Source: Bacteroidales bacterium (lineage in GTDB: Bacteria > Bacteroidota > Bacteroidia > Bacteroidales > UBA10428). From it: 64,000 bases of DNA. The stretch's first letter is position 1; each line of letters opens with the position of its first letter. This document shows positions 5,681 through 37,755 of this stretch, piece after piece. The stretch spans positions 30,175 to 94,174 of the forward strand of contig JAFGQO010000052.1 in assembly GCA_016935615.1 (NCBI GenBank), read 5' to 3'. The notes beneath the pieces were generated by a model that was not told where the DNA came from, made no database searches, and saw only the letters and a program-made list of their open reading frames with translations. The position numbers and the translations under genes were made by a program.

Positions 5681-5978
5681 ATTTTTTAACCGATCTTGTT
5701 ATGATTTGTCAAATCCGCCAAACTGTTCAGATGATTTTACCTTGCATGCAACAAAAATACAGGTATATTTTTAATAAATAGCCTTGTTTTAATTAATACA
5801 CATTATTGTCACTACCCTACATATTAATAGGGGTATTGTATATATTTATTATATTTTTTGATGTATACCCTTATTTTTTTGATAGTTATTAACATAATAA
5901 TACATTTTTTTGTTTTTTCTTAATATATTTGCCATTAGAAAAGAAAGCGTTCAATCATTAACTTTTAATAGCTATAAT

Positions 5979-6989
5979 ATGAAAGCAAAACTCGAATACA
6001 TTTGGCTGGATGGCTACAGGCCAACACAGACCATGCGCAGCAAAACACTTGTTGTCTCAGATTTTAATGGCAAACTTGATGGTTGCCCGATCTGGTCATT
6101 CGATGGATCATCAACAAAACAAGCTGCCGGCAACAATTCCGATTGTTTATTGAAACCGGTTGCACTGTTTTCCGATCCTGCCAGAAAAGACGGATGGTTT
6201 GTTATGACAGAAGTATTGAATGCCGACGGTACTCCGCATCCTTCAAACGGAAGGGCTACAATTGATGATGACGATGATGATTTTTGGTTTGGTTTTGAAC
6301 AGGAGTATGTTTTATGGGATCTTGATCATCATACACCGCTTGGTTTCCCTGCTCCGGGTTATTATCCTCCTCCACAGGGACCTTTTTATTGTTCTGTGGG
6401 TGCCGAGTACAATATTGGCAGGAATATCGTGGAAGAACATCTTGATAATTGCATACATGCCGGCATTAATATCGAAGGAATCAATGCTGAAGTCATGAAA
6501 GGACAGTGGGAGTATCAGATCTTTGCAAAAGGAGCAAAAGCAGCCGGTGATCAAACGTGGGTTGCACGCTATATTGCAGAGCGGGTTGGAGAAAAATACG
6601 GTGTTCGCATAAATCTTCATCCAAAACCGGTAGATGGCGACTGGAATGGTTCGGGCATGCATGCCAATTTTTCTAACGGAGCGATGAGAAACGCGGGGAA
6701 CAAAGAGACTTTCGAGAAAATCTGTAAAGAATTTGAAAAACATATACCGGAACACATCGCTGTTTACGGAGCCGACAATGACAAAAGATTAACAGGCCTT
6801 CATGAAACACAATCGATAGACAAATTTAGCTTCGGAGTTTCTGACAGAGGTGCTTCAATCCGTATTCCTGTCAGCACGGTTGAAAACGGATGGAAAGGAA
6901 GACTGGAAGACAGGAGACCAGCTTCAAATGCTGATCCGTACAAAGTGGCTTCAGTCATTATTAAGACAACAAAGAAGGCTTTAAAATAA
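5979..6989 (+). CDS. Glutamine synthetase, short type II-like form (about 336 aa)
   Basis: MKAKLEYIWLDG start at the ATG at 5979 (the track ORF begins upstream at 5910). GS motifs are FGFEQEY, NGSGMHANFS and SIRIP..... TAA stop at 6987-6989. Confidence 0.75.
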   Translation: MKAKLEYIWLDGYRPTQTMRSKTLVVSDFNGKLDGCPIWSFDGSSTKQAAGNNSDCLLKPVALFSDPARKDGWFVMTEVLNADGTPHPSNGRATIDDDDDDFWFGFEQEYVLWDLDHHTPLGFPAPGYYPPPQGPFYCSVGAEYNIGRNIVEEHLDNCIHAGINIEGINAEVMKGQWEYQIFAKGAKAAGDQTWVARYIAERVGEKYGVRINLHPKPVDGDWNGSGMHANFSNGAMRNAGNKETFEKICKEFEKHIPEHIAVYGADNDKRLTGLHETQSIDKFSFGVSDRGASIRIPVSTVENGWKGRLEDRRPASNADPYKVASVIIKTTKKALK

Positions 6990-7008
6990 TCAGAAATTCT
7001 CTGAGAAC

Positions 7009-7254
7009 AAAAAAGAGGTTGTCTAAAAAGTAAATGTAACTATATAAAGAATAAATTTTTACTTTGTGTAACTTCTTGTCTGCTCTGTGAATCTCTGTGT
7101 AACAGTAATTTAAGTTATACAACAGTGCCTCTGCAGAGTAGCTTCAGCGCTCGCGGAAAGTTGCGTAAACCTGCCTGCCAGCCACAGGCTGGTAAACCGG
7201 CCAGGCAGGGAAGACACAAAGCCGCACAAAGACTCTTTGGACAACCTCTTTTTT
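7009..7254. repeat. MITE-like / terminator-embedded element between the two convergent glutamine synthetase genes
   Basis: A perfect 15-nt inverted repeat, AAAAAAGAGGTTGTC (7009-7023) / GACAACCTCTTTTTT (7240-7254), brackets 216 nt. The interior holds CACAGAG/CACAAAG repeats and a GC-rich hairpin block (about 7121-7215). Confidence 0.5.
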
Positions 7255-9443
7255 CATCTGCTGAAAAGCAATTCGCGATATTTTGGTAGAGGCCAGATCT
7301 CATTATCCACAATCTGCTCAAGTTTATCAATATGATAACGAATATCCTCTATAAAAGGAAGGACCGTTAAAGAATACTGATTTGCCTTTTCTCTGGCATT
7401 GATGATAACATTTGCATTTTTTCGTGCTTCAGTCATTTCATTCACCTTAGCTTTGATTGTTGAGATATGTTCAGAAATTGTTAACACCAATTCTTTTCTG
7501 GCAACTGATAAATTCTGAAATTCACTTTGGCCGAATGTTTCTTTTAATCCTTTTATATTATTCATCAATTGAGTCTGGTAATCAATTGCAATCGGAATAA
7601 TCTGGCTTAAAGCAATATCTCCGATCACCCTTGATTCTATCTGAATTTTCTTGGTGAAATTGTCATACCGCACATCGGTTCGCCCCTCAAGTTCCTTCTC
7701 ATTCATGACTTTTTGTGATTTGAACAACCGTTTTGATTTTGTTGAGAGATACGCATCAAGCGATTCAATGACACTGGTAACATTAGTAAGTCCCCTCTTC
7801 GCCGCTTCTTTTTGCCATTCTTCACTATAGCTGTTCCCCTCAAAACGCACATTTTTCGATTCAATGATGTATTTTCTTATTACCTGAAATATTGCCTCAT
7901 CTTTTTTAACTCCTTTATTTATCAATTCATCTATGTCCTTTTTGAACTGAACCAGTTGGTGGGCAACGGCAGTGTTTAACACAGTCATGGGGGCAGCGCA
8001 ATTCACTGAAGCACCAACAGCTCTGAATTCAAAACGGTTGCCTGTGAACGCAAATGGAGAAGTACGATTTCTGTCGGTATTATCAAGTAATATTTCAGGG
8101 ATTTTACCAACGTCTAATTTTAGTTCTGTCTTTTCATCCGGGGTCATTTTTTTAGTTGTAACCCTAACTTCCAATTCATCGAGCATACCGGATATTTTAT
8201 TGCCAACAAACACAGACATGATCATGGGCGGAGCCTCATTTCCTCCCAATCTTAATGCATTTCCTGCTGACACAATACTGGCCCTTAACAAATCCTGATG
8301 AGTATATACTGCTTTTAAGGTGCAAACCAAAAAACTTAAGAATTGCATGTTTGTTTTTGGTTTTTTCCCGGGTGATAAAAGATTCACTCCGGTATTGGTC
8401 ATCAGCGACCAGTTGTTATGTTTTCCTGACCCATTAATTCCTTTGTAAGGCTTTTCATGAAACAACACAATAAAATGATGACGCCTGGCTATTCTTTTCA
8501 TAATATCCATCAGCAGAATATTATGATCAACCGCCAGATTGCATTCTTCAAATACCGGAGCTGCCTCGTATTGATTAGGTGCAACCTCATTGTGTCTGGT
8601 TCGCAAAGGTATTCCAAGCTTATAGGCTTCAATCTCAAATTCTTTCATAAACCCGCTTACACGCTCAGGAATGGATGAAAAATAATGATCATCAAGTTGT
8701 TGATCTTTTTCTGAAGCATGACCCACCAATGTACGATCAGTCATTACAAGATCAGGCCTGGCAAAATATAGTGCCTCATCGACAAGGAAATATTCCTGTT
8801 CAACTCCGAGTGTCGCATAGACTTTTGTAACATTTTTATCAAAATATTCACAAACATCTACAGAGGCTTTATCAATGACAGCCAGTGCCTTTAATAAAGG
8901 GGTTTTATGGTCAAGAGCTTCACCCGTATAGGATACAAATACCGTGGGTATACTTAATGTATTTGCAACAATATATGCCGGAGAGGAAGGATCCCATGCC
9001 GTATAGCCTCTTGCTTCAAAAGTATTACGAATACCACCGCTCGGGAAACTGCTTGCATCCGGTTCCTGTTGTGCCAGATGCTGTCCTGAAAATTTTTCAA
9101 CGACTCCGCCAAATTCCGTATATTCTATAAATGCATCATGTTTCTCAGCCGTGCCATCAGTGAGCGGATGAAACCAGTGAGAAAAATGGGTTGCCCCCAT
9201 TTCAAGCGCCCATGATTTCATGCCGCTGGCAACCTTATCAGCAAGTTTTCTGTCAATTGTATGTCCCTTTTCAATACACTCTGCCACCCCTTCATATGCT
9301 TCCTGTGATAAGTACCGTTGCATTTTAACCTTATCAAAAACATGTATTCCGAAATAATCGGATGTCTTCTTTGACGGAGCCTCTATATAGACCGGTTTTC
9401 TGCTATTTGCATTATGAACTGCCTGAAATCTGATAATAGCCAT
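7254..9443 (-). CDS. glnN: Glutamine synthetase type III (GSIII)
   Basis: 729 aa, the length and N-terminus (FGIHVFDKVKMQRYLS...) typical of Bacteroides-type GSIII. GS catalytic-region motifs are present (EVAPNQYE, NGSGKHNNWS). Confidence 0.85.
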   Translation of the reverse strand: MAIIRFQAVHNANSRKPVYIEAPSKKTSDYFGIHVFDKVKMQRYLSQEAYEGVAECIEKGHTIDRKLADKVASGMKSWALEMGATHFSHWFHPLTDGTAEKHDAFIEYTEFGGVVEKFSGQHLAQQEPDASSFPSGGIRNTFEARGYTAWDPSSPAYIVANTLSIPTVFVSYTGEALDHKTPLLKALAVIDKASVDVCEYFDKNVTKVYATLGVEQEYFLVDEALYFARPDLVMTDRTLVGHASEKDQQLDDHYFSSIPERVSGFMKEFEIEAYKLGIPLRTRHNEVAPNQYEAAPVFEECNLAVDHNILLMDIMKRIARRHHFIVLFHEKPYKGINGSGKHNNWSLMTNTGVNLLSPGKKPKTNMQFLSFLVCTLKAVYTHQDLLRASIVSAGNALRLGGNEAPPMIMSVFVGNKISGMLDELEVRVTTKKMTPDEKTELKLDVGKIPEILLDNTDRNRTSPFAFTGNRFEFRAVGASVNCAAPMTVLNTAVAHQLVQFKKDIDELINKGVKKDEAIFQVIRKYIIESKNVRFEGNSYSEEWQKEAAKRGLTNVTSVIESLDAYLSTKSKRLFKSQKVMNEKELEGRTDVRYDNFTKKIQIESRVIGDIALSQIIPIAIDYQTQLMNNIKGLKETFGQSEFQNLSVARKELVLTISEHISTIKAKVNEMTEARKNANVIINAREKANQYSLTVLPFIEDIRYHIDKLEQIVDNEIWPLPKYRELLFSR

Positions 9444-26100: not shown

Positions 26101-27357
26101 ATTATTAAGATAAATATGGTCACCTTCCTGCAACACTTTATATCCGACCAAAGTCATAGCATGGTTCCAAAAACCTACAGTTGCAGCAGTTGCCCCTTTA
26201 ATAATTTCCCTCTTTTTTTCATCTTCTGATGAATGTGCGCTTTTTGAATTGATTCTTACTATTTCAGCAGAATTAGTGCATTTATTCTCACATGGCAAGT
26301 CATTGGCAGCATAGGGAAAACAACTTTCATTCACAATTCCCGTATCCATAATATAGGTCAATGCACCATTAGGACTACCACCGGCACAACTACCAGCACC
26401 ACTGCATGATAAAACATCCTGTTCGGAAAGATCAGGATCCAGGTGTTGATTGTAATACAAATTCACCAGTAATTCAGTTGCGCCGGTAACGGCAAAAGCC
26501 CAGCAACTTCCGCACCCCCCCTGGTTTTTAACGGAAGTTACCCAGTTCTGCCCATGCCGGTTGCGCCAGCTGAATTCCTTTACAAAGGAAAATCCTGTTT
26601 TGGCTTGAGTGATGGACTTTATCTTATCCTTATCTGCATTCTCTTCAAGTACACCTGGCAAAACAAATATCCCTCCCCTGTAATATTCAAAACCCTGCAA
26701 ATTGGGTACTTTACCACCGAACATCTTCTTTTTTTCCTGGTATGTCATACATGAAACGGATGTTTCCCCGGCAATCCATTTTAGCCCTTTTCTTTCTATA
26801 TACTGATTTATTTTGTTAATTTTTTCCGATTGCTGTTGTTCTAATTTATTGGTTCTGGTCTTTGCAATAAAGGATTCTTCTCCTCTTGTTTCTATTTCTT
26901 TTAAATGAATGGAGGCATCCACTGTTTCAATAGTGATGCTCATCGGAATAATGTTATCCAATATTGCTGTTTCTTCCCCGGTCTGATCAATTTCAAAAGA
27001 CCCATTTTCTGTCAATAAGGGATATGCTTCATAAATAAGGTATTCATTCAACTTATAATCAATAAGGATCACCCGCACCAGGCTTGAATCGGAATACAAT
27101 TCAACAGAGGCTGAGATTGTCAATCCACTGATTTTTCGCTGATCGGTAAAAGGTCGCAACTGAATGTTTTTATCTGTACGGATATTCAATCCTATCCGTT
27201 GATCGGCCTCTTTCAGCATTTTAAAAGAACTCTTACCGGCCATTTGTGAATGGATCGTTGAAGACAAACAAAGAATACAAAACAGCATTAATATTTTTAG
27301 TAATAGTTTATCAATACTGTTAATCAGGATTTTAAAAGGTTTTGCAACTAACAACAT
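23155..27357 (-). CDS. T9SS-secreted multidomain protein: papain-like C1 cysteine peptidase, four Ig-like modules, two FISUMP (Fibrobacter succinogenes major paralogous) domains and a Por/T9SS C-terminal sorting domain
   Basis: C1 catalytic motifs are QGGCGSCWAF (Cys at about aa 285, nt about 26505), WNHAMTLVGY and NSWGSYWGNDGY. FISUMP signatures are YGRLYNW.....CP.G(Y/W)(R/H).P.D.(D/E)W, NTGATNESGFTALP.G and SVRC(M/I). The C-terminal IEIYPNPGVDILHIQL...GVYFIRI is T9SS-CTD-like. Confidence 0.8.
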   Translation of the reverse strand: MLLVAKPFKILINSIDKLLLKILMLFCILCLSSTIHSQMAGKSSFKMLKEADQRIGLNIRTDKNIQLRPFTDQRKISGLTISASVELYSDSSLVRVILIDYKLNEYLIYEAYPLLTENGSFEIDQTGEETAILDNIIPMSITIETVDASIHLKEIETRGEESFIAKTRTNKLEQQQSEKINKINQYIERKGLKWIAGETSVSCMTYQEKKKMFGGKVPNLQGFEYYRGGIFVLPGVLEENADKDKIKSITQAKTGFSFVKEFSWRNRHGQNWVTSVKNQGGCGSCWAFAVTGATELLVNLYYNQHLDPDLSEQDVLSCSGAGSCAGGSPNGALTYIMDTGIVNESCFPYAANDLPCENKCTNSAEIVRINSKSAHSSEDEKKREIIKGATAATVGFWNHAMTLVGYKVLQEGDHIYLNNNGSTSWITILEDDILIGQTAWLFKNSWGSYWGNDGYVYVVGSIYVYSLHGPVHSVNYNDSDIRCIDQDNDGYYTWGTGLKPAHCPDCPDEPDGDDSDECMGPLDAYGNILSVIPPPAADDVTLCEGEFVPDLTASGENIRWYNDPHLSGLIYSGSPFPTGHTDIGIYTYYVTQNISGCESDPDTVVLSIRPLPPVAGDVNLCGEQHTVLLTAQGENIKWYANPSYLYDYRDNHIYNMVTINDQTWMKENLNFYTLSGSWYYNNDSILYSDVYGRLYNWETAMDVCPDGYRLPSDNDWIDLGKYLGGDEIAGGKMKEEGFLHWNSPNTGATNESGFTALPAGRKSYDSETFWFLGDRGVFWSSDLQTGNVAWVRLVLNGNADLHKDNAYISHGYSVRCMRNISDPIASGYTLKPILTDTGTYVYFVTQTVNDVESPADTVILTIYPVPDAPVSENMSVCENLDPIQLQAEGENVKWYADPDIVSLVDARDGQEYLTVKIGDQWWMAENLNYGIMIGHTTEQTNNEVAEKYCYDNSEENCDTYGGLYQWDEAMDYTGYEVNRGLCPEGWHIPTDREWRQMENYLGMEVSEALSGEWRGTNEGGKLKEESDLYWKEPNTGATNESGFTALPGGTRYLDKEFYNIGSWAYFWTSALEQEEFAWKRNLHSIESRIRRMSADTKESMSVRCIKDDVLLTEGNVYQPEISDTGTISYYVSQSVNGCESNYRSVQLTIKPVPDLPVAENQAVCFGEETPDMFALGENIHWYSDTALTNCIYSGNIFPATQTEPGTYTYYVTQSLEECEGDCMPVSLFIYSLPEVDLGSDTTITDQGSVVLSLLDNESYSYLWSTGSDGSCIEVSGSVAGVGDHTYWLMVTDSNSCENSDTVTVSVTHVNAIPYSMMNRSIEIYPNPGVDILHIQLAGMNDKKLSIEVIDRLGNVLISEQHYADPGNEDLKLNVSVLSPGVYFIRIFAEKIMITKGIVIR

Positions 27358-27580
27358 GACTGTTCAGATTAGGGTAATGAAAACTATGGAAAAGCTGATC
27401 TTGATTCAATTTACAACTTTAAAAAAGTGAAGTCGAGCACTTGTTGATGAATTGTATGCATACGATTGATCAATGGTCTGGATTTTAAGCTGAAAAAATA
27501 AGATGCAAAAAACGAATTTAGATTACAATAAAAAAAAGTCAATCCAATTAATATTCATTGCTTTAAATATTACATAAATT

Positions 27581-29767
27581 GATCTGTTTTATTCAATTTT
27601 TCAATCAACCGAAGACGCCAGGTGGCGGCTGAGCTCGTGAGCGACAGCGAACAAACCACTCAAAAGAATGAAGTTTATATTGAGCCGGGAAAATCCCGAT
27701 ATATCTTATTCAATTTTTCAATCAAACCACAACTATCCTTAATCTGCTCTGCTATTCTTTTTAGATATATCTTATTCAATTTTTCAATCAAACCACAACA
27801 CACGGGAGGGGATGATGGGATAGGTTCTTGATATATCTTATTCAATTTTTCAATCAAACCACAACAAAGCTGCAACAGGAGTAACAGATACAGAAGATAT
27901 ATCTTATTCAATTTTTCAATCAAACCACAACCAACTTTCGGAGATAGTACAACGGCTGGGGATATATCTTATTCAATTTTTCAATCAAACCACAACCGCA
28001 TCAAGCTTGGTTTCAATCCTCGTTAGATATATCTTATTCAATTTTTCAATCAAACCACAACAGTAATTGAACCACTCCATGCAGAGATGCTGATATATCT
28101 TATTCAATTTTTCAATCAAACCACAACATGGTTATTAAAGAACTACGCTAAAGAGGGGATATATCTTATTCAATTTTTCAATCAAACCACAACATAGTAC
28201 ACGAAGGAATTTTTTTATTATTGATATATCTTATTCAATTTTTCAATCAAACCACAACCTCCAAAGCTGCTTTATCCTGCGGATCAGGATATATCTTATT
28301 CAATTTTTCAATCAAACCACAACTTGTCTATTATTATTGTTGTTTGCTGCTCGGATATATCTTATTCAATTTTTCAATCAAACCACAACAGAGTCTAGCT
28401 GTGCTATTGTTAATGTTTGGATATATCTTATTCAATTTTTCAATCAAACCACAACTGCTTCCATTCTGGTAAAAATCATAATCTGATATATCTTATTCAA
28501 TTTTTCAATCAAACCACAACGCTTTTAACAATAGAGGATCTGCGGGAAATGATATATCTTATTCAATTTTTCAATCAAACCACAACAAGAAAAAGGTCAA
28601 GGAAGAAAGATAACAGATATATCTTATTCAATTTTTCAATCAAACCACAACATAGTTAAATATCTGCTTTCCTGTGGTTATGATATATCTTATTCAATTT
28701 TTCAATCAAACCACAACGATCCTGTTATTGACCTCGTTTTTGAACCAGATATATCTTATTCAATTTTTCAATCAAACCACAACACAACTGTAACAGCTGC
28801 CTCTTCTTCTTAAGATATATCTTATTCAATTTTTCAATCAAACCACAACTGTTTCATGCGGTTTGTTTTAATATGTCTTGATATATCTTATTCAATTTTT
28901 CAATCAAACCACAACTAGATCTTGTCTATCCGTTAGGGAAAGGCAGATATATCTTATTCAATTTTTCAATCAAACCACAACTGGCTCTGGAACACGGATG
29001 CGACAGCATAGATATATCTTATTCAATTTTTCAATCAAACCACAACTCTCTAATCTGGATTCAGATTTAGTAGGCAGATATATCTTATTCAATTTTTCAA
29101 TCAAACCACAACTACAATACCGAAAATGATTACGGAATGGTAGATATATCTTATTCAATTTTTCAATCAAACCACAACCACCGGGCAGTACAGGATATCC
29201 AGTTTGAGATATATCTTATTCAATTTTTCAATCAAACCACAACCGTTTTAATACAGACAATTATGAGTTACTGATATATCTTATTCAATTTTTCAATCAA
29301 ACCACAACCATTTGCCAACGCTCATTTTATAACCATAAGATATATCTTATTCAATTTTTCAATCAAACCACAACGGACGTAGTCCGGATACTTTAAAAGT
29401 TAAAGATATATCTTATTCAATTTTTCAATCAAACCACAACACATCTCCATGAGTATATATTTGAGAATAGATATATCTTATTCAATTTTTCAATCAAACC
29501 ACAACATGCTTACTCTTTTTGAAACGATACTAATTGATATATCTTATTCAATTTTTCAATCAAACCACAACTCTTTCTTTCAGCATATTAACCCTCAACA
29601 GATATATCTTATTCAATTTTTCAATCAAACCACAACAACAAAAGGAATTAATTGAATTAGGCAAAGGATATATCTTATTCAATTTTTCAATCAAACCACA
29701 ACTGTTTTGATATCAATAATGTATAAACGTTGATATATCTTATTCAATTTTTCAATCAAACCACAAC
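27581..29767 (-). CRISPR. CRISPR array: 32 identical 36-nt repeats plus one degenerate terminal repeat, 29-30-nt spacers
   Basis: The plus-strand repeat is GATATATCTTATTCAATTTTTCAATCAAACCACAAC. In crRNA sense (minus strand) it reads GTTGTGGTTTGATTGAAAAATTGAATAAGATATATC. Full repeats run from 27698-27733 to 29732-29767, with 31 unique 29-30-nt spacers counted by hand. A degenerate repeat (29/36 identities) lies at 27581-27616, at the end distal to cas2. Confidence 0.97.
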
Positions 29768-29906
29768 CAAGGGCTCTGTATGCCTTTATTTTCAATTATT
29801 ACAGGCGATTTTACGTTATAAAAAACGAATACATACTCCATGGAAGTGGAATGATTTACCAAATTTATGCATTCTGATCCAATATGTCAAAGAACTTTGC
29901 TATAGG
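29768..29906 (-). promoter_or_regulatory. Putative CRISPR leader (between the cas2 stop and the first repeat)
   Basis: A 139-nt AT-rich non-coding stretch lies next to the non-degenerate end of the array, on the side from which GTTGTGG-sense crRNA would be transcribed. Confidence 0.5.
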
Positions 29907-30245
29907 TTAAAATATCTCCAGTTGCTGCGGCCCCTGCGGAAGCGGCAAGGTTTTAGCACCCCAGAAATTAATAATGTCTCCGTATTGCTTATCGGTAATA
30001 AGCAGGATACTTACCTGTCCTTCTTCCGGCACTGCCGATTTTATCCGGCGTACATGCACATCTGCGCTTTCGCGGCTGGCACAATGCCTCGTGTACACAG
30101 AATATTGCATCATATTAAAACCGTCACGTTCCAGACCTTTGCGAAACAGTGTTGCCTTACGTCTTTGTTTTTTCGTCACTACCGATAAATCAAAAAATAC
30201 AAAAACCCACATGATGTGATATGCATTTAACCGTTCCCGTTCCAT
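29907..30245 (-). CDS. cas2: CRISPR-associated endoribonuclease Cas2 (type II)
   Basis: 112 aa. YHIMWVFVFFDLSV.TKK.RR.A..FRK.L..DGF.M.Q.SVY.R.C is typical of type II Cas2. It lies immediately downstream of cas1. Confidence 0.9.
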   Translation of the reverse strand: MERERLNAYHIMWVFVFFDLSVVTKKQRRKATLFRKGLERDGFNMMQYSVYTRHCASRESADVHVRRIKSAVPEEGQVSILLITDKQYGDIINFWGAKTLPLPQGPQQLEIF

Positions 30246-30271
30246 TCATTATGTTATATTTGTTACCCCAA

Positions 30272-30300
30272 CTCTGTCAGGGTTCAAAACCCTGAAAGAG
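30272..30300. repeat. REP-like palindrome copy a (cas1/cas2 junction)
   Basis: CTCTGTCAGGGTT-CAA-AACCCTGAAAGAG forms a 13-bp stem with one mismatch. It sits in the 58-nt gap between the cas1 stop (30304) and the cas2 ATG (30245). Confidence 0.75.
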
Positions 30301-30303
30301 TTT

Positions 30304-31239
30304 TTACTTCAAAACCGGATAATCTATCTTCTTCTGGCTACCTGAAAAGCACCGGGCAAGTGAAGCAGTTGTTTGCGAAAGACCCACCATTAACGGGCGG
30401 GTGGTCTTACCGAAATGCACATCGCGTACCAGCACATTGAGCAGTTCGGCCTTAATTTCTTTTTCCAGGTCTTCCAGTCCCGGATAACTTCCGGCAAGCT
30501 GAAAAACCTGTTCGTCCACAAAAGGACGGTAGGGCTCCATAATGTCGTCGGCCAGGCAATACGCATTATAGCGGTTATGATGATGTATGCCGAACGTGGG
30601 CATTAATCCGCTGCCCGTAAGTGCCCTTGCCACGGCAGCGCGTAGCACAATATACCCGTAATTCAGAAAATTGTTTGGAAACGGACCATAGCGCTCTCGT
30701 GTAAACCCTTCACCAAAAAGCCTTGTCCAGTACAATCGTGCAGCCACACCTTCCCGGCCGGTCGAATCGTCGCTTTTCACATCTTTTGCCAGGGTCTGGA
30801 TATCATTCCATTCTTTTCCCAACTTATCCAGTAACCGTGCCTGGTTGGTTATTTTGGCCTCAACTGTTTGCTTCCATAACCCTTTTTTCAGAGGTTCACT
30901 GATCGACACCTGCTGCCGGAATAACTCTCCCTGCAAATGATTTCCCTCCAGCGGAAAAAGCATGGAATGCGGCATGTGGCTGCTGTTACAAAAAATAACA
31001 GCCACGTTATTAGCTGCTAATTCATCAAGTAATGGCATGCTTATAATGATTTGCTTATGTTCCAGTACTACAAAACCCAGGTCTTCAACCGGAATTGTTG
31101 TTTTATCACCACTTTGCGGATCACTCACCCCTGACAGGGTTTGAAACCCTGTCAGGGGTTCAATCCTGTTTACTATAAGCTGTTTGTTTTTAACTGACAA
31201 ATAGCAGGGGGTTGAAAAATAAACTGTTCTTTTGAGCAT
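30304..31239 (-). CDS. cas1: CRISPR-associated endonuclease Cas1 (type II)
   Basis: ATG at 31239 (MLKRTVYFSTPCYLSVKNKQLIV, a typical type II Cas1 N-terminus). The 25-codon upstream extension in the track ORF is read through a palindrome and is rejected. Conserved Cas1 C-terminal core motifs are GIHH.NRYN.Y.LADD.MEP.RP.VD. Confidence 0.9.
   Translation of the reverse strand: MLKRTVYFSTPCYLSVKNKQLIVNRIEPLTGFQTLSGVSDPQSGDKTTIPVEDLGFVVLEHKQIIISMPLLDELAANNVAVIFCNSSHMPHSMLFPLEGNHLQGELFRQQVSISEPLKKGLWKQTVEAKITNQARLLDKLGKEWNDIQTLAKDVKSDDSTGREGVAARLYWTRLFGEGFTRERYGPFPNNFLNYGYIVLRAAVARALTGSGLMPTFGIHHHNRYNAYCLADDIMEPYRPFVDEQVFQLAGSYPGLEDLEKEIKAELLNVLVRDVHFGKTTRPLMVGLSQTTASLARCFSGSQKKIDYPVLK
31128..31158. 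repeat. REP-like palindrome copy b (in-frame inside cas1)
   Basis: CCCCTGACAGGGTTT-G-AAACCCTGTCAGGGG is translated on the minus strand as EPLTGFQTLSGV. Confidence 0.85.
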
Positions 31240-31261
31240 GGTTATATGTTTTTCTCTTGCG

Positions 31262-31292
31262 CCCCTGTCAGGGTTCGGAACCCTGACAGAGG
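31262..31292. repeat. REP-like palindrome copy c (23 nt upstream of the cas1 ATG)
   Basis: CCCCTGTCAGGGTT-CGG-AACCCTGACAGAGG. This is the stem variant with the T:A pair flipped relative to copies b, d, e and f. Confidence 0.8.
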
Positions 31293-31316
31293 TCAGATAG
31301 TTGTCTGCAAACACTC

Positions 31317-31349
31317 AACGCTGACAGGGTTCTAAACCCTGTCAGCGTT
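31317..31349. repeat. REP-like palindrome copy d (flanks the 3' end of the RAYT gene)
   Basis: AACGCTGACAGGGTT-CTA-AACCCTGTCAGCGTT forms a perfect 15-bp stem. It is identical to copy f except for one loop base. Confidence 0.9.
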
Positions 31350-31360
31350 ACAAATAACAT

Positions 31361-32014
31361 TTAAAAGATCTTTTCTATTCCGGTTAATTCCGGAGGGTAT
31401 TTATGACAGTAAATAGAGTTCTCTTTATCATCGAACCATTCAATAATATCATTTTTCCTGATTATACCTGGTTTATCAGAAACGATTGCATTATATGATG
31501 AATATTCCCAATCCCGGGGATCAGCACAAAAACTGGCTTCCACAGGATTAAAATGAATGCAATGAACCAACTTGTAAAGGTAATTCTCATCGTCTATTGC
31601 CCTGCGCTTAAAAGGTCTGTTAAACAAACTTCCAATACGGCTTTGCTGCTTATTAAAAGCCTGGGTGTAAGCATTGAATAAATTTGAAAACTGTTTGCTA
31701 AAGAAGTTGGAGATGAGTTGTTGCTTTCTCAACCCTGACAGGGTTTCGAACCCTGTCAGGGTTTGGCTATGATTGACTTTTTCTTTCAGATACCTGACAA
31801 CCTCCCGTTTGTTTCTGATTTTAATCAGTAAATGAAAATGATTAAGAAGAAGACAATAACAAAAAGTATGGGCGACAGGATAGATAAAATCCTGATAACG
31901 TTTCATAAAATACCGGTAATTATCATCTGAGGTGTAAAGCTTCTCGTTACCAACAGCCCGGTTGTAAATATAGTAAGTCTTTTCCGGTTCCAGTATGTCT
32001 GTATATTTGTTCAT
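31361..32014 (-). CDS. REP-associated tyrosine transposase (RAYT) / IS200-like Y1 HUH transposase
   Basis: 217 aa. The HUH motif lies in LLLNHFHLLIK. The C-terminal GSLFNRPFKRR...YLYKLVHCIHFNPV carries the catalytic-Tyr helix pattern of COG1943-type proteins. The gene is flanked by palindromes. Confidence 0.8.
   Translation of the reverse strand: MNKYTDILEPEKTYYIYNRAVGNEKLYTSDDNYRYFMKRYQDFIYPVAHTFCYCLLLNHFHLLIKIRNKREVVRYLKEKVNHSQTLTGFETLSGLRKQQLISNFFSKQFSNLFNAYTQAFNKQQSRIGSLFNRPFKRRAIDDENYLYKLVHCIHFNPVEASFCADPRDWEYSSYNAIVSDKPGIIRKNDIIEWFDDKENSIYCHKYPPELTGIEKIF
31731..31763. repeat. REP-like palindrome copy e (in-frame inside the RAYT ORF)
   Basis: AACCCTGACAGGGTT-TCG-AACCCTGTCAGGGTT is translated on the minus strand as QTLTGFETLSGL, between the HUH and Tyr motifs. 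Confidence 0.85.
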
Positions 32015-32042
32015 GGTTATCCTTGAACTTTTAATTTAACCA

Positions 32043-32075
32043 AACGCTGACAGGGTTCGAAACCCTGTCAGCGTT
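32043..32075. repeat. REP-like palindrome copy f (between the cas9 stop and the RAYT ATG)
   Basis: AACGCTGACAGGGTT-CGA-AACCCTGTCAGCGTT forms a perfect 15-bp stem. Confidence 0.9.
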
Positions 32076-32146
32076 AAATTGTCTTTTGCATCTTTTATCC
32101 CAATAAATAGCAGAGTATCGAAAATACATAGCTCGTTTAATCATGG

Positions 32147-35100
32147 TTATATCTTTATTATTTCCCCTAATGCTGTTATTTTAAAATCTACACCCTCTAT
32201 AACAGCATTAAAATTTGTATGTATAAATTTTCTATATAAAACAATTGGCTCATTTAGTTCAAATTTTCCATCTTTTACTTTAAGATCACTCTGAGAAATT
32301 GCACATTGATGAAACAAACAAAAAATTACAGCATATTTACCACTTTCTCCAAAACTCTTTATTTCGTATAACCGTTTTTGCAATTCAGAATAATCTTTCC
32401 AATTAATATCATCAATATTTTCATTTTTTTGTAATAAAAGAATAAATAAATCTTGTTTGAGCATTTGCTTTAGTTCCAAATAACATTTTTTACTTCTATG
32501 CTCAAAATAATCATTGATGGGAAGAGTTACATCATTTTCATGGGAATTTAATAGACGACCAACATCTAAATTATTTAAAAAACGATATTTAACAATTTTA
32601 TCATCTGAATATATCCCTAACAAATAATTCCCATCATTATCCACATATGTTTTTTCTTTGTAATCTTTCCCAAATTTTTCAATTCTTTTTTTGTGTTTTT
32701 TTGATTTGTGTGAATTTTCTTTAAGAGGAATTGCAGTTAAATAACCTTTAGCTTTTATCTGGCGGCATCTAATGGTTTTAATTATCATTTCTTTTTTTCC
32801 ATCCTCTACTGGCAACACTATTTGTCCTTTGCTTTTTACGTTTTTTAATCCATATTTTAATATTCTGTCTTGAATCCCTTTGTCAACAATATTTTTAATT
32901 CCTGATTCATTTAAGTTTTCTATGGGCATTCTTTTTACATACCAATCCTCATATACTATATCATCATTTTCGTTCTTTTTAATTTGATTTTTGCTATCTA
33001 GCATTGGACGTTTTATTTTTCCAAAGAAAAAATCTTTATGCAATTTATCCCGAATGCCAGTTGTAATATTATTCGCTTTATCATTATGCCATGTATACCG
33101 CGCTTCTTTCTCAAATACTACTTTACCGTCTTTGTCTTTTACAAACTCATATCCTTTTAAATTAATAGTCCCTTCAGTTTCTCTGTATTCATCAAAACTG
33201 TTTAAAACTTTAATGTTTTGTTTATTATCGACTTTAAAAATATGCAGTATAAAATCAGGGGTCACATCGTTTCGCTTTCCTTTTACGGGAACATTTTTCC
33301 CATTAATATCGGTTTTGTATTTCCACTCAAGTACTTTAATGCTTCCATTAGTGTCTTTTTCAATTTGGTCAGCGCGATGTACAATTTTACCCCGAACACG
33401 TATCTTTTTTTTCGTTTGTTTCTTTAAATTATCCTTGATACGATGAGAAACTAAAATGCTTTCACGTAGATTTTGCATATCAATCAAAAAGTTTTCCCAA
33501 GGTATTAGCTGTTCTCTGGCCTCTACGATCTGTTCCTTTAGTTTTTTAGTCCCCTCGCTTTTTTCTTCTTTATTAAAATGTAAGGCTTTTTTAAGAAGTT
33601 CTTGTAAATAGTAATAGCGCTCTAACTTTTTCAATGTCTCTGGTTTTCTGCGTGCAAAACCAACAAGACAGGCACAATATACAGCGTCAATAGTGTGATG
33701 GACATGGTTGTCACGGCTTTTCTCATATCCTGTAATTTTTCTAAACTCGTCTACAAATAAAGAGCTAATATTGAAAACATTGTTAAAAGCACTTTTAAGA
33801 TATAATAAAGCATATTTGTTTATAATACCTATGTCTGTTAATTGACGATTCTTAAAATCATCAGTTACTTCTGTAAGTTTGAAATTGTTCACTTTCTTTT
33901 GCCAATAGTCAAGATGCATTTTTAAATAGTGACGTTCTTGAATATTGTGGTTTTTAGTGGCTTTATCATGTATGTTTTTTCCTTTACGTTTTAAATCCTC
34001 AATCCTATCTTCCAGTATCTCCACTTTTTTTTCCCAACGTTTTATGAATGTAAGAATTCTATCGTAATCATTACCCAATTCCGATGGGAGTTTATTCCCT
34101 TTTATGCTTCGATTGTAATAACTTTCAGCAATGGTCTTATTTGATAGAGAGTTATCAAATGATTTACTTAAAGGAATAGTATGTTCAATGTCATGTTTAT
34201 TACCATTTATTAAATCGGCCATTCCAATTTGATTCCCGGTATATATACAAATTCCATTCTGCTCCCTCCAAAGACGATACTTTTCGATAGCATAGTCGGG
34301 CAATTTCATCCTTTTTTCTCTTTTTGTAAACTGAGCTGTATGGATTTCCAACTTGTTATAAAATTGTTCTGCTTCGTTTTCGTCTTCCAATTGTTCTACC
34401 CAGAATTTAATTTTGTCTTTTTCATCATTTCCCGGTTGAATATCCAGCTTATTCTCTTTATAGAACTCAACCAATAAATTTTTGTAAAATTCATTCTCTG
34501 TTTCCCTCTCTTTTTGAAAACGTTCAATAGCCTTTCGCATATTATAATCATTCACATCTCTTCCTAATTCAACAACAATCTGAGTTTCATCATCAATAAC
34601 ATTATTGATTAACAATGCATTTATCACTTTCCTTAACTCGCACATAGCACGCATAAACAGGGGATTCTTAATAGAATTTATTAAAGGACTTTTCAGTAAA
34701 CGTACCCCATTTTTGTTAGGTTCTACTTTTGGATAAAATTCAATGGCAGACGGGTGATAAATTTTCTTTGCTTTTTCTTCTTCTATTGCCAATTCATTTA
34801 TTAAATAATCCTGAACTTGTTGCTTTATACTTTTTGTCTTTATAAAAGAACCACCAATATTTCCTGATTGTAATTGTCTCTCAAAATCGGCCTCAACTTC
34901 AGCTATTATTTTATTTCGAATTTCCTGTTCAAAACCATTCCATGTTTTTTCTCCATACTTTTTTAAAAACTGTTTTAACACAATCTCTTTGTCTCTATCA
35001 TCTAAACAATATTTTGTGTGCGCATTTTTTGATTCATTTCTGAAAATAGCAATACAATCATTGACAATATCATTTTTCTTTTTTTCATAGGAGTATTTAT

Positions 35101-36559
35101 CGAAAATACTATTAACATCTTCTAAAATATCATCAGGAATATTTTCTCCTTTTGAAAGTTCTAAAATATCTGGTATTTTGGCCAACAATATTGCTTTGTC
35201 AGGTCGATACCCTTCTATTAGAAATGGCATTATTTTGCCAATTGCTTTAAAACTTAGATTTGCATAACCTTGTTTTATAGGGGCATTAATGAACCTTTCA
35301 GCTTTATCATCACCTAACCCAAACTTATTTTTAGCAATGTCTATTAATGGTCCATCCGCTTTATCCTGAATAAAATGATCAAAAAACATGTGCCAAATAT
35401 CACGGATATCGATATATTTATTTTCTCCCTTTTTATTTTTACCATTATAAAATTTTACGGATTTCCAATCTTCCCCAAACAAATCTTTCAAGTGAGCGCT
35501 TACTGGGCAGCCACTAACCGTTGTTGTATCTTTATAGTTAAATTCATAGATTCCGGTTTTATCAATCATATTATGTATATCTTCAAACTTAAAAGTGCCT
35601 TTGCTTTTTCGATAAAAAAGAGGTAAAATATTTTCTTCAATGCTTATACCAAAATATGTTTGCTCTCTCAATGATTTAAAATTCTTCTTCTCTTCGCCAA
35701 CTTTTTTAATTTTGATATTATTGATAAAAGAATACATCCTGTATTCTTCAAATTCGATAGAACTTAAAGGGCATCGGGATTTACCGGTTTCAAAAACACA
35801 TTTTCCCACATTCCCTTTTTGAGACTTTAAAGGCCGAGCTTCAAAAATTGTCTTTCTAACTTCCTTAATAAATTCTTCCGATAAATTTTGATGTCGACAA
35901 ATTGCGTGAAAATCCAGTTCCAACGTTTTTCGGGAAATTTTATTTTCTTCAGTAGTATTTCGAATTCTTTCTGCCTTTATATGCTTTTGATACAGAATCT
36001 TACTCTTTGGAATATCTCCATATTCTTCTTCGTATTCTTTGTGATACTCAATATCTTTGGGTAAACTTTTTTTGTTTGTACTAACTTCTGTGGCACTTAA
36101 CAGGGATAAAGTATCCTTTTTATTGCTTTTAAATCCTCTTCGTTGTGTTAAGTGATAGAAAATTCGTCCCAATTCTTTTTTTGATAATTTTTCTCCATCG
36201 ACTGCCCTTTTTCTCAATTCATAGGGATTTAATTTAAACCATTCTATAAGTTTCTCTCGAACCGGATAACTTCGTTTTTTATGCCAAGAAGTTAATTCAT
36301 CATCCTCAAAAGGATGGAACTCTTTCCCTAATAATCGTAAAAGTTCAATTTTCCTGCCTTTTCTTCTATAATTTAATTTTCTAGCACCTCTATGAGAGGT
36401 TCTTTCTGCTGCTCTTGATGAATCCTGATATTCATCTCCATAACCTCTTTGAAATATCCTTACACCTTTTTCTTTTAGTTCCAATTTTCCTTCTTTATTT
36501 TCCACCACTGCCCAACCAATGCTGTTGGTCCCTAGGTCAAGTCCTAAAATTTTTGCCAT
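32147..36559 (-). CDS. cas9: CRISPR-associated endonuclease Cas9 (type II-C, 1470 aa)
   Basis: RuvC-I is MAKILGLDLGTNSIGWAVV. The Arg-rich bridge helix is RTSHRGARKLNYRRKGRK. RuvC-II is IVVELGRD. HNH is DIEHTIPLSKSFDNSLSNKT....YNRSIKGNKLP. RuvC-III is NHVHHTIDAV. There is no csn2 or cas4 in the locus. Confidence 0.97.
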   Translation of the reverse strand: MAKILGLDLGTNSIGWAVVENKEGKLELKEKGVRIFQRGYGDEYQDSSRAAERTSHRGARKLNYRRKGRKIELLRLLGKEFHPFEDDELTSWHKKRSYPVREKLIEWFKLNPYELRKRAVDGEKLSKKELGRIFYHLTQRRGFKSNKKDTLSLLSATEVSTNKKSLPKDIEYHKEYEEEYGDIPKSKILYQKHIKAERIRNTTEENKISRKTLELDFHAICRHQNLSEEFIKEVRKTIFEARPLKSQKGNVGKCVFETGKSRCPLSSIEFEEYRMYSFINNIKIKKVGEEKKNFKSLREQTYFGISIEENILPLFYRKSKGTFKFEDIHNMIDKTGIYEFNYKDTTTVSGCPVSAHLKDLFGEDWKSVKFYNGKNKKGENKYIDIRDIWHMFFDHFIQDKADGPLIDIAKNKFGLGDDKAERFINAPIKQGYANLSFKAIGKIMPFLIEGYRPDKAILLAKIPDILELSKGENIPDDILEDVNSIFDKYSYEKKKNDIVNDCIAIFRNESKNAHTKYCLDDRDKEIVLKQFLKKYGEKTWNGFEQEIRNKIIAEVEADFERQLQSGNIGGSFIKTKSIKQQVQDYLINELAIEEEKAKKIYHPSAIEFYPKVEPNKNGVRLLKSPLINSIKNPLFMRAMCELRKVINALLINNVIDDETQIVVELGRDVNDYNMRKAIERFQKERETENEFYKNLLVEFYKENKLDIQPGNDEKDKIKFWVEQLEDENEAEQFYNKLEIHTAQFTKREKRMKLPDYAIEKYRLWREQNGICIYTGNQIGMADLINGNKHDIEHTIPLSKSFDNSLSNKTIAESYYNRSIKGNKLPSELGNDYDRILTFIKRWEKKVEILEDRIEDLKRKGKNIHDKATKNHNIQERHYLKMHLDYWQKKVNNFKLTEVTDDFKNRQLTDIGIINKYALLYLKSAFNNVFNISSLFVDEFRKITGYEKSRDNHVHHTIDAVYCACLVGFARRKPETLKKLERYYYLQELLKKALHFNKEEKSEGTKKLKEQIVEAREQLIPWENFLIDMQNLRESILVSHRIKDNLKKQTKKKIRVRGKIVHRADQIEKDTNGSIKVLEWKYKTDINGKNVPVKGKRNDVTPDFILHIFKVDNKQNIKVLNSFDEYRETEGTINLKGYEFVKDKDGKVVFEKEARYTWHNDKANNITTGIRDKLHKDFFFGKIKRPMLDSKNQIKKNENDDIVYEDWYVKRMPIENLNESGIKNIVDKGIQDRILKYGLKNVKSKGQIVLPVEDGKKEMIIKTIRCRQIKAKGYLTAIPLKENSHKSKKHKKRIEKFGKDYKEKTYVDNDGNYLLGIYSDDKIVKYRFLNNLDVGRLLNSHENDVTLPINDYFEHRSKKCYLELKQMLKQDLFILLLQKNENIDDINWKDYSELQKRLYEIKSFGESGKYAVIFCLFHQCAISQSDLKVKDGKFELNEPIVLYRKFIHTNFNAVIEGVDFKITALGEIIKI

Positions 36560-36602
36560 AACTTTTTGTTTTTAGAGTTTTATATTATAAATTGCTTACT
36601 AG

Positions 36603-36688
36603 AAAAAATCAATTTTTCAATCTTATCACAATAAGGCTATATGCCGAAGGATATTAAATCCTGTAACCCCGCTTCGGTGGGGTTTTTT
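36603..36688 (+). ncRNA. tracrRNA (divergent from cas9); ends are approximate
   Basis: The anti-repeat UCAAUUUUUCAAUCUUAUCACAAU (36609-36632) pairs with crRNA repeat nt 1-24 (GUUGUGGUUUGAUUGAAAAAUUGA). That gives 22 pairs including two G:U, interrupted by a 2-nt U:U internal mismatch. Next come a nexus-like GGC-UAUAU-GCC, the hairpin AGGAU-AUUAA-AUCCU and the terminator CCCCGC-UUCG-GUGGGG plus U6, ending at 36688. Confidence 0.85.
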
Positions 36689-36978
36689 ATGTGACTATAC
36701 AACACTTCCTTGTACTCAGAAAAACAACTTTTATTCAGGAGTTACTTTATAATTGCCTTATTACGTTTCTATTATGATATGCAAAGAATTACAATTATTA
36801 AGTCAAGTTAACAAATTACTTCTTTATTGCCAAAAAGCATCAAGCCTGAAGTCGACTATTTACATGAGCCATTAACGTTTAAGATGAAGATCATTAAAAA
36901 TAGTGAACCAAAGTTTTATAATTAACGTCCATTCCGCATTGGAAAAGGGAATTGTTCTGGAATATGCGATATCTTTGT

Positions 36979-37182
36979 GGCGCATGCAAACTCACCTCTA
37001 CGAAATAACGAACAGAATGCGCCAAATTCTTTTTTTCATATACCCCAAGGCGATGCCTTGGGCTAAATTATTTTTGCCTTACAGGCAAAATGATAACAGT
37101 TTACTGCCTAAAGCCTTTATTAATTCAGCCTGGTGCAACGCACCAGGTTTGCCTGTTTTTATAAATTGTGGCATCTGCCATG
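36979..37182. repeat. Hairpin-cluster element (possible ncRNA or intergenic repeat)
   Basis: The long-range stem is GGCGCAT (36979-85) / ATGCGCC (37017-23). Three hairpins of identical design (8-bp stem, 3-nt loop) follow: CCCAAGGC-GAT-GCCTTGGG (37044-62), TTTTGCCT-TAC-AGGCAAAA (37072-90) and CCTGGTGC-AAC-GCACCAGG (37129-47). A weaker TGGCA-TC-TGCCA lies at 37169-80. Confidence 0.4.
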
Positions 37183-37403
37183 TTATTCAAAGAATTTGAT
37201 ATTGTATGCGGCAAAACCACAGATACATTTTAATTAACTGGCAATAAAAACTAAAAAATCTGATACTCGTTATTTCAATTGGTTTAACCTTATATTGAAT
37301 TGATTGTGTGAGTGAAGAGTCCTTCTCCGTTCCGGTAACCCATAACTTCGGTGGATAAAAGAGAAACAGAGTGAGAATGACTCACTCTCACTCTGTTTTT
37401 ATG

Positions 37404-37468
37404 TGGTAGCACCTGGAATCGTCCCGACTGTGTCACCTGACCAGTCGGGACAGGGACACACGGATTTT
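37404..37468 (-). pseudogene. Relic 3' half of tRNA-Phe (positions 35-73) disrupted by a 30-nt palindromic replacement in the T-arm
   Basis: A 41-nt perfect direct repeat of 37850-37890 lies at 37381-37421 (CTCACTCTCACTCTGTTTTTATGTGGTAGCACCTGGAATCG). Homology then resumes (AGGGACACACGGATTTT) and stops inside the anticodon. The original downstream terminator hairpin (CAGAGTGAG/CTCACTCTG, about 37367-37393) is retained. Confidence 0.75.
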
Positions 37469-37755
37469 TACGAATATTTTTCCTCTAGTCGCTTTAAAAA
37501 TTCCGGCTTGTTTTTCAGGTTTTCTATATATTTCCGGCTTTTCATGTTCTTAATATATTTTTCAATCTTGCGTGCCTGAATTCTGTCTCGACAGGAAATC
37601 ATCAAATATAGTTCCCAATCGCTCACTTTTGAGGTATAGGCATTTTTAAAAAATCCGGTATTATGCATTCGTATCCTTTCCTCTAAATTTTCTGTTTCTC
37701 CTATGTAATATTTATCAAGCAACGGACTGTACAGGATGTAACAAGCGTATTTCAT
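37468..37755 (-). CDS. Small GIY-YIG nuclease family protein (URI-domain, COG2827-like), 95 aa
   Basis: The ATG at 37755 gives MKYACYILYSPLLDKYYIGETENLEERIRMHN, with the GIY...YIG motifs. The 49-codon N-terminal extension in the track ORF overlaps the tRNA-Phe gene and is rejected. The TAA stop abuts the relic tRNA half. Confidence 0.8.
   Translation of the reverse strand: MKYACYILYSPLLDKYYIGETENLEERIRMHNTGFFKNAYTSKVSDWELYLMISCRDRIQARKIEKYIKNMKSRKYIENLKNKPEFLKRLEEKYS

Follow-up and report, generated by a model that had tools for sequence, protein, structure and literature searches.

We analyzed a 64 kb stretch of a Bacteroidales contig (GenBank assembly GCA_016935615.1, contig JAFGQO010000052.1), hereafter called the window, that carries a type II-C CRISPR-Cas locus with a palindromic element inside its cas1 gene. 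The adaptation module was assigned to type II-C from a cas9-cas1-cas2 operon lacking csn2 and cas4 and from a match to the type II Cas1 model above its cutoff. An additional gene lies between cas9 and cas1 (31361–32014) and codes for a protein related to the repetitive extragenic palindrome (REP)-associated tyrosine transposases (RAYTs, also called TnpA_REP). As judged from their sequences, the palindrome is a REP and this gene is its partner RAYT, which an earlier interpretation made from the letters of the window (the sequence-only reading) had missed. The loci with L numbers and the protein P0002 are comparison contigs and proteins obtained by database searches.

The sequence-only reading had placed a 31-nt palindrome within cas1 at 31128–31158, read without a stop or frameshift in an otherwise intact gene. 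The 31-mer CCCCTGACAGGGTTTGAAACCCTGTCAGGGG was indeed found exactly at this position, with no match in any of 100 shuffles of the window, and it extends to a 33-nt perfect palindrome, whose arms (31127–31142 and 31144–31159) are 100% complementary and separated by 1 nt. Read codon by codon, it is translated as NRI-EPLTGFQTLSGV-SDPQ, with neither a stop nor a frameshift. As single-stranded DNA (ssDNA), it is predicted to form a hairpin of -18.3 kcal/mol (z = -6.5). The remainder of the protein also proved intact, as the window Cas1 matches TIGR03639 over its full length (300 bits, for a cutoff of 120) and keeps all the residues that are invariant across the Cas1 alignment. The TIGR03639 alignment spreads 292 residues over 277 profile positions, which already signals ~15 extra residues in Cas1.

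Nearly all of the top 120 Cas1 homologues, from a search that gave thousands, are 294–297 aa long, compared to 311 aa in the window. In an alignment of 26 Cas1 proteins, 24 homologues (64–85% identity) possess an acidic loop of 6–7 residues (for example, NR-DDDEPV-TIPVED) where the window has 22, and ~16 residues of the window Cas1 are missing from them. Only the closest relative, P0002 (87% identical), shares the insert, in the form EPLTGFQTLSGM. At the codon level, the insert-free loci L003 and L006 read NR-D(D/N)(D/E)EP(V/A)-TIPVED. Relative to insert-free orthologues, L001, the contig encoding P0002, carries 36 additional nt (12 aa) and the window 48 (16 aa), the latter being accounted for by the 33-nt palindrome together with a few bases next to it and another indel of 12 nt. 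The flanking part varies between the lineages by this indel and by V/M and S/N changes. The sequence-only reading had proposed to align close homologues in search of an insertion of about 10–12 residues and to look for the segment LTGFQTLSG in them: the insertion was confirmed, at ~16 aa in the window and 12 aa in L001, and the segment is absent from the 24 homologues and present only in P0002.

The insert was found in three independent assemblies, namely the window, an NCBI metagenome-assembled genome (MAG; L001), and a JGI metagenome (L002). Both L001 and L002 carry the palindrome family at positions matching those of the window, with five to six copies in the window and in L001/L002, and a 214-aa open reading frame (ORF) between cas9 and cas1. 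In the insert-free loci L003–L007, cas9 leads directly to cas1 and no palindrome copy was found, and none of 80 further species-representative Cas1 loci carries the window's element. Because the segment is absent from the 24 homologues and the family occupies matching positions in the contig of P0002, the alignments identify the segment as an in-frame insertion and not as ancestral protein sequence. The insertion is older than the split of the window lineage from the L001/L002 lineage.

Table 1 Positions of the features in the window (first rows) and of the RAYT-bearing gaps in the comparison loci (last row).
Feature	Position	Strand	Description
cas9	32147..36559	-	1470 aa; HNH and RuvC-III domains
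REP copy between cas9 stop and RAYT start	32043..32075	.	Palindrome; homology with L001 starts here
RAYT-like (TnpA_REP) gene	31361..32014	-	217 aa; between cas9 and cas1; HuH motif NHFH; catalytic Tyr replaced by Cys
REP copy inside RAYT ORF	31731..31763	-	Core match, palindrome, and RAYT alignment
Codon 152 of RAYT	31559..31561	-	TGC (Cys); Tyr of YIHxNP motif in 12/13 homologues
REP copy immediately 3' of RAYT stop	31317..31349	.	Hairpin; compensatory change versus L001 orthologue (AACG..CGTT versus AACC..GGTT)
REP copy immediately 5' of cas1 ATG	31262..31292	.	T/A variant at W pair; not in L001
cas1	30304..31239 (ATG 31239, stop 30304)	-	311 aa; type II; intact; TIGR03639, PF01867
REP copy inside cas1	31127..31159	-	33-nt perfect palindrome; translated (E)PLTGFQTLSG(V)
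Approximate 48-nt insertion in cas1	31114..31161	-	Residues E27-Q42; REP, flanking bases, and later 12-nt indel; edges ambiguous by a few bases
Degenerate REP copy in 58-nt cas1-cas2 spacer	30270..30302	.	Palindrome
cas2	29907..30245	-	112 aa
CRISPR array	27698..29767	-	32 identical 36-nt repeats, 31 unique spacers of 29-30 nt
RAYT-bearing cas9-cas1 gaps (L127, L129, L130, L132, L133, L135, L137, L140, L141, L145, L152, L173, L191, L203)	~3200-3990, cas1 at 4001	co-oriented	

The cas1-cas2 gap spans 14–47 nt in the insert-free loci, versus 58 nt in the window. A candidate tracrRNA anti-repeat (36609–36631; 20 of 23 matches to the repeat) lies 50–70 nt upstream of cas9, and a degenerate repeat (27581–27608) lies ~90 nt past the distal end of the array. 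In L001, a second CRISPR-Cas module (Cas6b, Cas1, Cas2, Cas4; 5942–9261) directly follows the type II array, and no REP copy was found in it.

The palindrome family and its transposase gene

The window contains six occurrences of the core CTGACAGGGTTnnnAACCCTGTCAG, which are confined to 30270–32075 and lie within 1.8 kb of the RAYT gene. An alignment of 160 copies, taken from the matches listed, gave the consensus AAC-S-CTGWCAGGGTT-NNN-AACCCTGWCAG-S-GTT, with a 15-bp stem and a 3-nt loop; the edges of the 33-nt unit are sharp, and the flanks are unconserved and AT-rich. The stem covaries, one pair being CG in 88 copies, GC in 49, and TA in 15, and the W pair being AT in 115 and TA in 40. As ssDNA, the copies are predicted to form hairpins of about -18 kcal/mol (z of -6 to -10). 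A scan of species-representative genomes found at least 119 loci with the exact core, and some MAGs have several of them. The matches listed come mostly from Bacteroidota but also from Planctomycetota (Brocadia/Kuenenia), KSB1, Moduliflexus, and Balneolaceae, and most of the copies among them are not spanned by long ORFs. An Rfam search of 27000–37500 at a permissive threshold gave nothing near gathering scores, the REPs having only chance matches to RF00043, and a full-text literature search for the core sequence returned only unrelated primers.

The sole NCBIfam family match of the 217-aa ORF is REP_Tyr_transpos (NF047646; E = 3e-13, 49.9 bits), and a profile of its homologues has Escherichia coli TnpA_REP (4ER8) as its only PDB match. 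All 13 of the homologues aligned share the HuH motif NHFH, which aligns with the HuH region of 4ER8, and the Y motif, which is YIH(x)NP in the relatives, reads CIHFNP in the window. The gene is flanked by REP copies at 32043, 31317, and 31262. In 12 other loci, a RAYT homologue (35–45% identity) is flanked by or contains two to four copies; elsewhere among the matches listed, copies are solitary. A palindrome also lies within the RAYT gene, between HuH and Y. It is intact in the window, L001, L098, L111, and L010, the last of which reads it in the other open frame, and decayed L(x)GF..L(x)G peptides are seen in the RAYTs of L056, L029, L036, and L117. In most RAYT homologues, an L(T/S)GFxxL(S/T)G peptide, either intact or decayed, comes after the HuH strand.

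Over all fetched loci, 17 of 163 copies are spanned by ORFs with 40 or more open codons to either side, and ~11 copies (~7%) are in-frame in real genes after removal of spurious ORFs. The REP-spanning ORFs of L016, L097, L092, L023, L078, and L031 were rejected as intragenic cases, as they have no family matches or look antisense. The in-frame hosts are cas1 (window and L001), five RAYT genes, a DUF7149-DUF7814-MmeI/Eco57I methylase-type protein with two REPs (L120, 2–2449, minus strand; REPs at 1417–1441 and 304–328), a TPR-SpoIIE phosphatase (L122, 3336–3360), and a T9SS-sorted protein (L015, 710–734). In the last three, the REPs are all translated in the L[TS]GFxTL[ST]G frame, and the alignments to Pfam families are stretched where the inserts lie. 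The 33-nt unit corresponds to 11 codons: frame one gives a TLTGFQTLSG-like peptide, frame two gives NPDRVxNPVRV, and the third alone has a TGA. Because the unit is a palindrome, the openness of the frames is the same on both strands. This length and these stop-free frames leave two thirds of coding insertions non-truncating, and they illustrate how selfish palindromes of this kind persist.

Four REP units follow one another head to tail with a 29-nt period in L126 (2154–2273), the last three with the variant left arm CTGATGGGG; this array is a local tandem amplification of the element. REPs of the window family were also seen in an unrelated type II locus, L046 (47-nt repeats, Cas1 53% identical), at the cas1-cas2 and cas2-leader junctions (440–472 and 834–866), and in L066 (Candidatus Kuenenia), where a copy (2772–2796) lies ~50 nt upstream of a distant cas1 ORF (2842–3810). 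The L046 and L066 copies may reflect an excess of REPs of this family near cas genes.

The insert in Cas1

In an AlphaFold2 model of the window Cas1 (mean predicted local distance difference test score, pLDDT, of 75.5), residues 27–42 fall between strands 20–25 and 47–50 of the N-terminal beta-domain (beta3 and beta4), and residues 29–44 have a pLDDT below 50. The model has a Cas1 fold, with type II (type II-A) Cas1 integrases as its best structural matches. Sequence alignments to PDB entries begin at residue 49, and the loop was placed using the AlphaFold model and the multiple alignment. The insert is thus predicted to occupy a disordered loop of the Cas1 N-terminal domain. This agrees with the sequence-only reading, which had described the site as a poorly conserved segment and expected it to map to a loop: the site is the short, variable, and acidic beta3-beta4 loop, whose length varies naturally across Bacteroidota Cas1 proteins.

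Between the two insert-bearing lineages (window and L001), the ratio of nonsynonymous to synonymous substitution rates (dN/dS) of cas1 is 0.05 (dS of ~1.26), compared to 0.03–0.05 against the insert-free L003; for the same pair, it is 0.05 for cas2 and 0.18 for the RAYT gene. The window and L001 arrays are built from the same 36-nt repeat (32 and 40 perfect copies), and no spacer is common to the two sets of 31 and 39, which indicates that both arrays were renewed after the common insertion. Together, the purifying selection on cas1 and the array renewal suggest that the insert is carried as a tolerated passenger rather than being a lesion that disables the gene. They favor a working adaptation module without proving it. 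The arrays of L001 (3276–5881) and L002 are distinguished by a single internal spacer, which is third counting from the cas2 side. This difference was rejected as evidence for acquisition since an internal position points to a loss, and it is consistent with loss by recombination in a natural population.

We consider it likely that the palindrome in cas1 is a REP from a RAYT REPtron residing in the cas operon, which was seeded locally, landed in-frame in a tolerant Cas1 loop, and has been carried since as a tolerated passenger. The REPtron consists of the cognate HuH/Y1 RAYT between cas9 and cas1, flanked and interrupted by REPs. Its transposase would have cut and rejoined single-stranded hairpin DNA, seeding copies mostly nearby, one of which would have hit cas1. 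The insertion would have survived because the REP unit is exactly 11 codons long, because a stop (TGA) is present in only one of three frames on either strand, and because the landing site was a short, variable, acidic loop tolerant of extra length. Thereafter, cas1 stayed under strong purifying selection and the arrays were wholly renewed, and the window RAYT later lost its nucleophilic tyrosine through Y152C.

Several points weigh against this scenario. The 49.9 bits of the window RAYT are below the curated cutoff of 80 of NF047646, an equivalog model built on other subclasses. At position 152, which aligns with Y115 of 4ER8, the window has a Cys where L001 and 11 other homologues have a Tyr; the Cys codon, TGC, is one transition from TAC, and the Y115F mutant of E. 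coli TnpA_REP is catalytically dead (PMC8266576). Lacking the catalytic tyrosine, the window RAYT belongs to the family by descent but has probably lost its activity in this lineage, and the local REP cluster is probably frozen by now, so that any mobilization has to be ascribed to an ancestor that was still active. The REP foot, A-A-C-S / S-G-T-T, contains no GTAG, GTGG, or CGTC in the 160 copies, whereas E. coli TnpA_REP needs a GT[AG]G foot. The clustering of REPs near the RAYT was read from 64 kb and may not hold genome-wide. To our knowledge, no system has yet provided an in vivo demonstration of REP transposition by a RAYT. The turnover of the arrays could come from array exchange rather than from acquisition by the window's Cas1. 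Finally, the cas1 REP differs between the lineages at 1 of its 33 nt, for a gene mean of 6.2 per 33 nt, which hints at constraint or homogenization beyond what a neutral passenger would show.

This last observation would also fit a co-opted insert maintained by selection, in which the hairpin regulates cas1-cas2 (through stability, attenuation, or a protein-binding site) or the loop aids Cas1, a reading that we hold to be rather improbable. In sliding windows along cas1, 35 of 858 33-nt windows (4%) have one difference or none, but two other, non-palindromic stretches are as conserved as the REP, and the signal is therefore not specific. For the same reason, nucleotide-level constraint was retained as a hint only, even though zero synonymous changes looked very unlikely given the gene-wide proportion of synonymous differences (pS). 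Orthologous intergenic REPs elsewhere in the locus stay paired via compensatory changes, REPs occupy the cas1-cas2 and cas2-leader junctions of the unrelated L046, and published REP roles include mRNA stabilization and transcription termination (PMC6006769). However, gene conversion among copies can also conserve REP stems and would explain the retained pairing as well as selection. Moreover, the 24 close homologues and the 80 further loci function without the insert, its flank is evolving freely, and the peptide is predicted to be disordered.

Far less probable is that the insertion inactivated Cas1 and that we are looking at a recently disabled ORF, open merely since the element is stop-free and 11 codons long. 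Sixteen residues in the N-terminal beta-domain could disturb Cas1 dimerization or Cas2 docking, but selection on cas1 has been as strict between the insert-bearing lineages, over a dS of ~1.26, as against the insert-free L003, the invariant residues are all present, the arrays keep perfect repeats with no spacers in common, and L141 (see below) keeps an intact cas1 with a ~50-aa insert at the same site. Ancestral Cas1 sequence that is palindromic by chance, or an assembly artefact, is hardly credible, as nothing but the undisturbed reading frame speaks for it, whereas the segment is missing from the 24 aligned homologues and the 80 further loci, the 33-nt unit recurs in at least 119 unrelated loci, and the insert is present in three independent assemblies.

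RAYT genes between cas9 and cas1

We surveyed 80 species-level loci with a related Cas1, 73 of which gave gap sizes. The cas9-cas1 gap is bimodal, with 43 loci below 200 nt, none at 200–500 nt, and 30 at 500 nt or more. In about 14 of these 73 type II-C loci, the gap harbors a co-oriented HuH ORF matching only the REP_Tyr_transpos model (Table 1), and each of these RAYTs has its own ~33-nt palindrome, inside and beside the gene. Other gaps contain PQLLE-family, DUF2204 nucleotidyltransferase, Bro-N, or RhuM-Fic/DOC genes. In neighbor-joining trees without support values, the RAYTs embedded in cas loci form at least four clades, which are interleaved with non-cas RAYTs and incongruent with the Cas1 tree. 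Given this incongruence, seen between two unbootstrapped trees, we judged it unlikely that one ancient RAYT insertion was inherited together with cas1. The recurrent RAYT occupancy of the slot is best explained by a cargo hotspot inside the cas operon. The RAYT-like gene of L173 (~3285–3956) has an in-frame stop in the variable segment after HuH (…NFSKV*NFGKV…) and is probably a pseudogene.

In L141, cas1 (ATG at 4002, 344 aa) contains three in-frame GTAG-type REPs (4101–4126, 4160–4186, and 4216–4242; GTAGAGACGCCC...GGGCGTCTC). They lie in the same beta3-beta4 loop of Cas1 and add ~50 residues, with VETPYQGVSN occurring twice. The RAYT-like ORF of this locus (3256–3990) is unrelated to the window's, has an NHIH motif, and contains an internal REP (3594–3622). 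On this evidence, L141 represents an independent recurrence of REP insertion into the same Cas1 loop. The cas1 gene of L200 contains a palindrome of another sequence (4063–4091; 13-bp stem, TGTTCTGCACATCCCTGATGTGCAGAACA), located where beta3 ends and this loop begins. Cas1 is the most conserved CRISPR protein, and that its beta3-beta4 loop takes 12–50 extra residues in nature suggests a position in type II integrases that would permit tags or fusions.

Homology between the window (32043–32160) and L001 (1005–1060) starts exactly at the cas9-side REP of the RAYT. Among loci with Cas1 proteins 85–87% identical, Cas1/Cas2 85–89% identical, and near-identical repeats, the Cas9 proteins share 22–37% identity. 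A dN/dS for the C-terminus of cas9 was discarded as meaningless, the window and L001 being barely alignable there. These comparisons indicate a shuffling of the effector module relative to the adaptation module, the junction coinciding with a REP. RAYTs in the cas9-cas1 slot, together with homology that starts at a REP, suggest a possible role of REP/RAYT in this shuffling, which, if confirmed, would link domesticated HuH transposases with CRISPR locus evolution.

One might go further and see RAYT/REP as a recurrent partner of Bacteroidota type II-C CRISPR-Cas loci rather than a chance passenger, since RAYTs of at least four to five lineages share the slot, the trees are incongruent, and cognate REPs twice entered the same loop independently; we regard this as a doubtful, speculative extension. 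If it were true, a structural feature might target the cas9-cas1 junction, or an HuH ssDNA nuclease might serve the locus, whether for its mobility, for the exchange of cas9 and cas1-cas2 modules at REPs, or for prespacer handling where Csn2 and Cas4 are lacking. The recurrence of RAYTs in the cas9-cas1 slot is a more novel lead than the in-frame REP in cas1.

Comparison with known systems

The sequence-only reading had presented in-frame palindromes as a phenomenon of Rickettsia and had known of none in cas1. The event is indeed of a known kind, but it is not special to Rickettsia, having been described in many species (PMC3733652, PMC6006769). Its view of cas1 stands so far: the literature searched, which omits some journals, yielded no description of a REP in cas1 or a RAYT in a cas operon.

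Intragenic REPs, GTAG- and CGTC-tagged, were reported in uvrA, uvrB, dnaE, ligase, methylase, and other genes (Di Nocera et al. 2013, PMC3733652), and the supplementary list of intragenic REPs of that paper has no CRISPR or cas entry. Like the window's, these REPs are in-frame, single or multiple, add ~7–50 residues, and are thought to lie in loops or linkers. They belong to another sequence class than the window's; both have an N6-methylase-type host (here L120).

The palindromic elements of Rickettsia (RPEs) are likewise palindromic selfish DNA found in-frame in still-functional genes, typically at surface-exposed sites. They are known only from the Rickettsia lineage, and RPE-1 is ~100–150 bp long. 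We know of no dedicated transposase for them. Going by these descriptions, the window element is set apart by its 33 nt, the lack of a CGTC tag, a cognate RAYT, and its presence in several phyla. RPE-4 and RPE-6 have been equated with CGTC REPs (PMC3733652).

The REP-RAYT-REP block that separates cas9 from cas1 is laid out like hairpin-tnpA-hairpin elements, in which a related HuH/Y1 enzyme recognizes the end hairpins. Unlike these elements, RAYTs mostly occur as single copies with no known movement as a unit, and here the repeats, not the gene, are dispersed.

The closest known systems are the REP/RAYT systems, specifically those of TnpA_REP subclass 2.4 (Quentin et al. 2018, PMC6006769), which equals RAYT group 4 (Bertels et al. 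2017). This subclass has the motifs NH[IFV]H and YIxNNP, is found in abundance among Cyanobacteria as well as Bacteroidetes and scattered elsewhere, and REPs in-frame inside its RAYT genes have been described (PMC6006769). By sequence comparison, the window transposase resembles this subclass: its NHFH fits NH[IFV]H, and YIH(x)NP/CIHFNP is close, though not identical, to YIxNNP. The likeness extends to a palindromic repeat flanking a single HuH/Y1 gene, an in-frame REP between HuH and Y, a distribution over Bacteroidetes and scattered phyla, and low-copy repeat families. The window differs in that its REP has no GT[AG]G foot or 'double foot' but starts with AAC-S and ends with S-GTT, in that the REPtron sits inside a type II-C cas operon with one copy in-frame in cas1, and in the Cys that replaces the catalytic Tyr. 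With respect to these systems, cas1 is a new host gene for an already documented in-frame REP event, with a natural replicate in L141.

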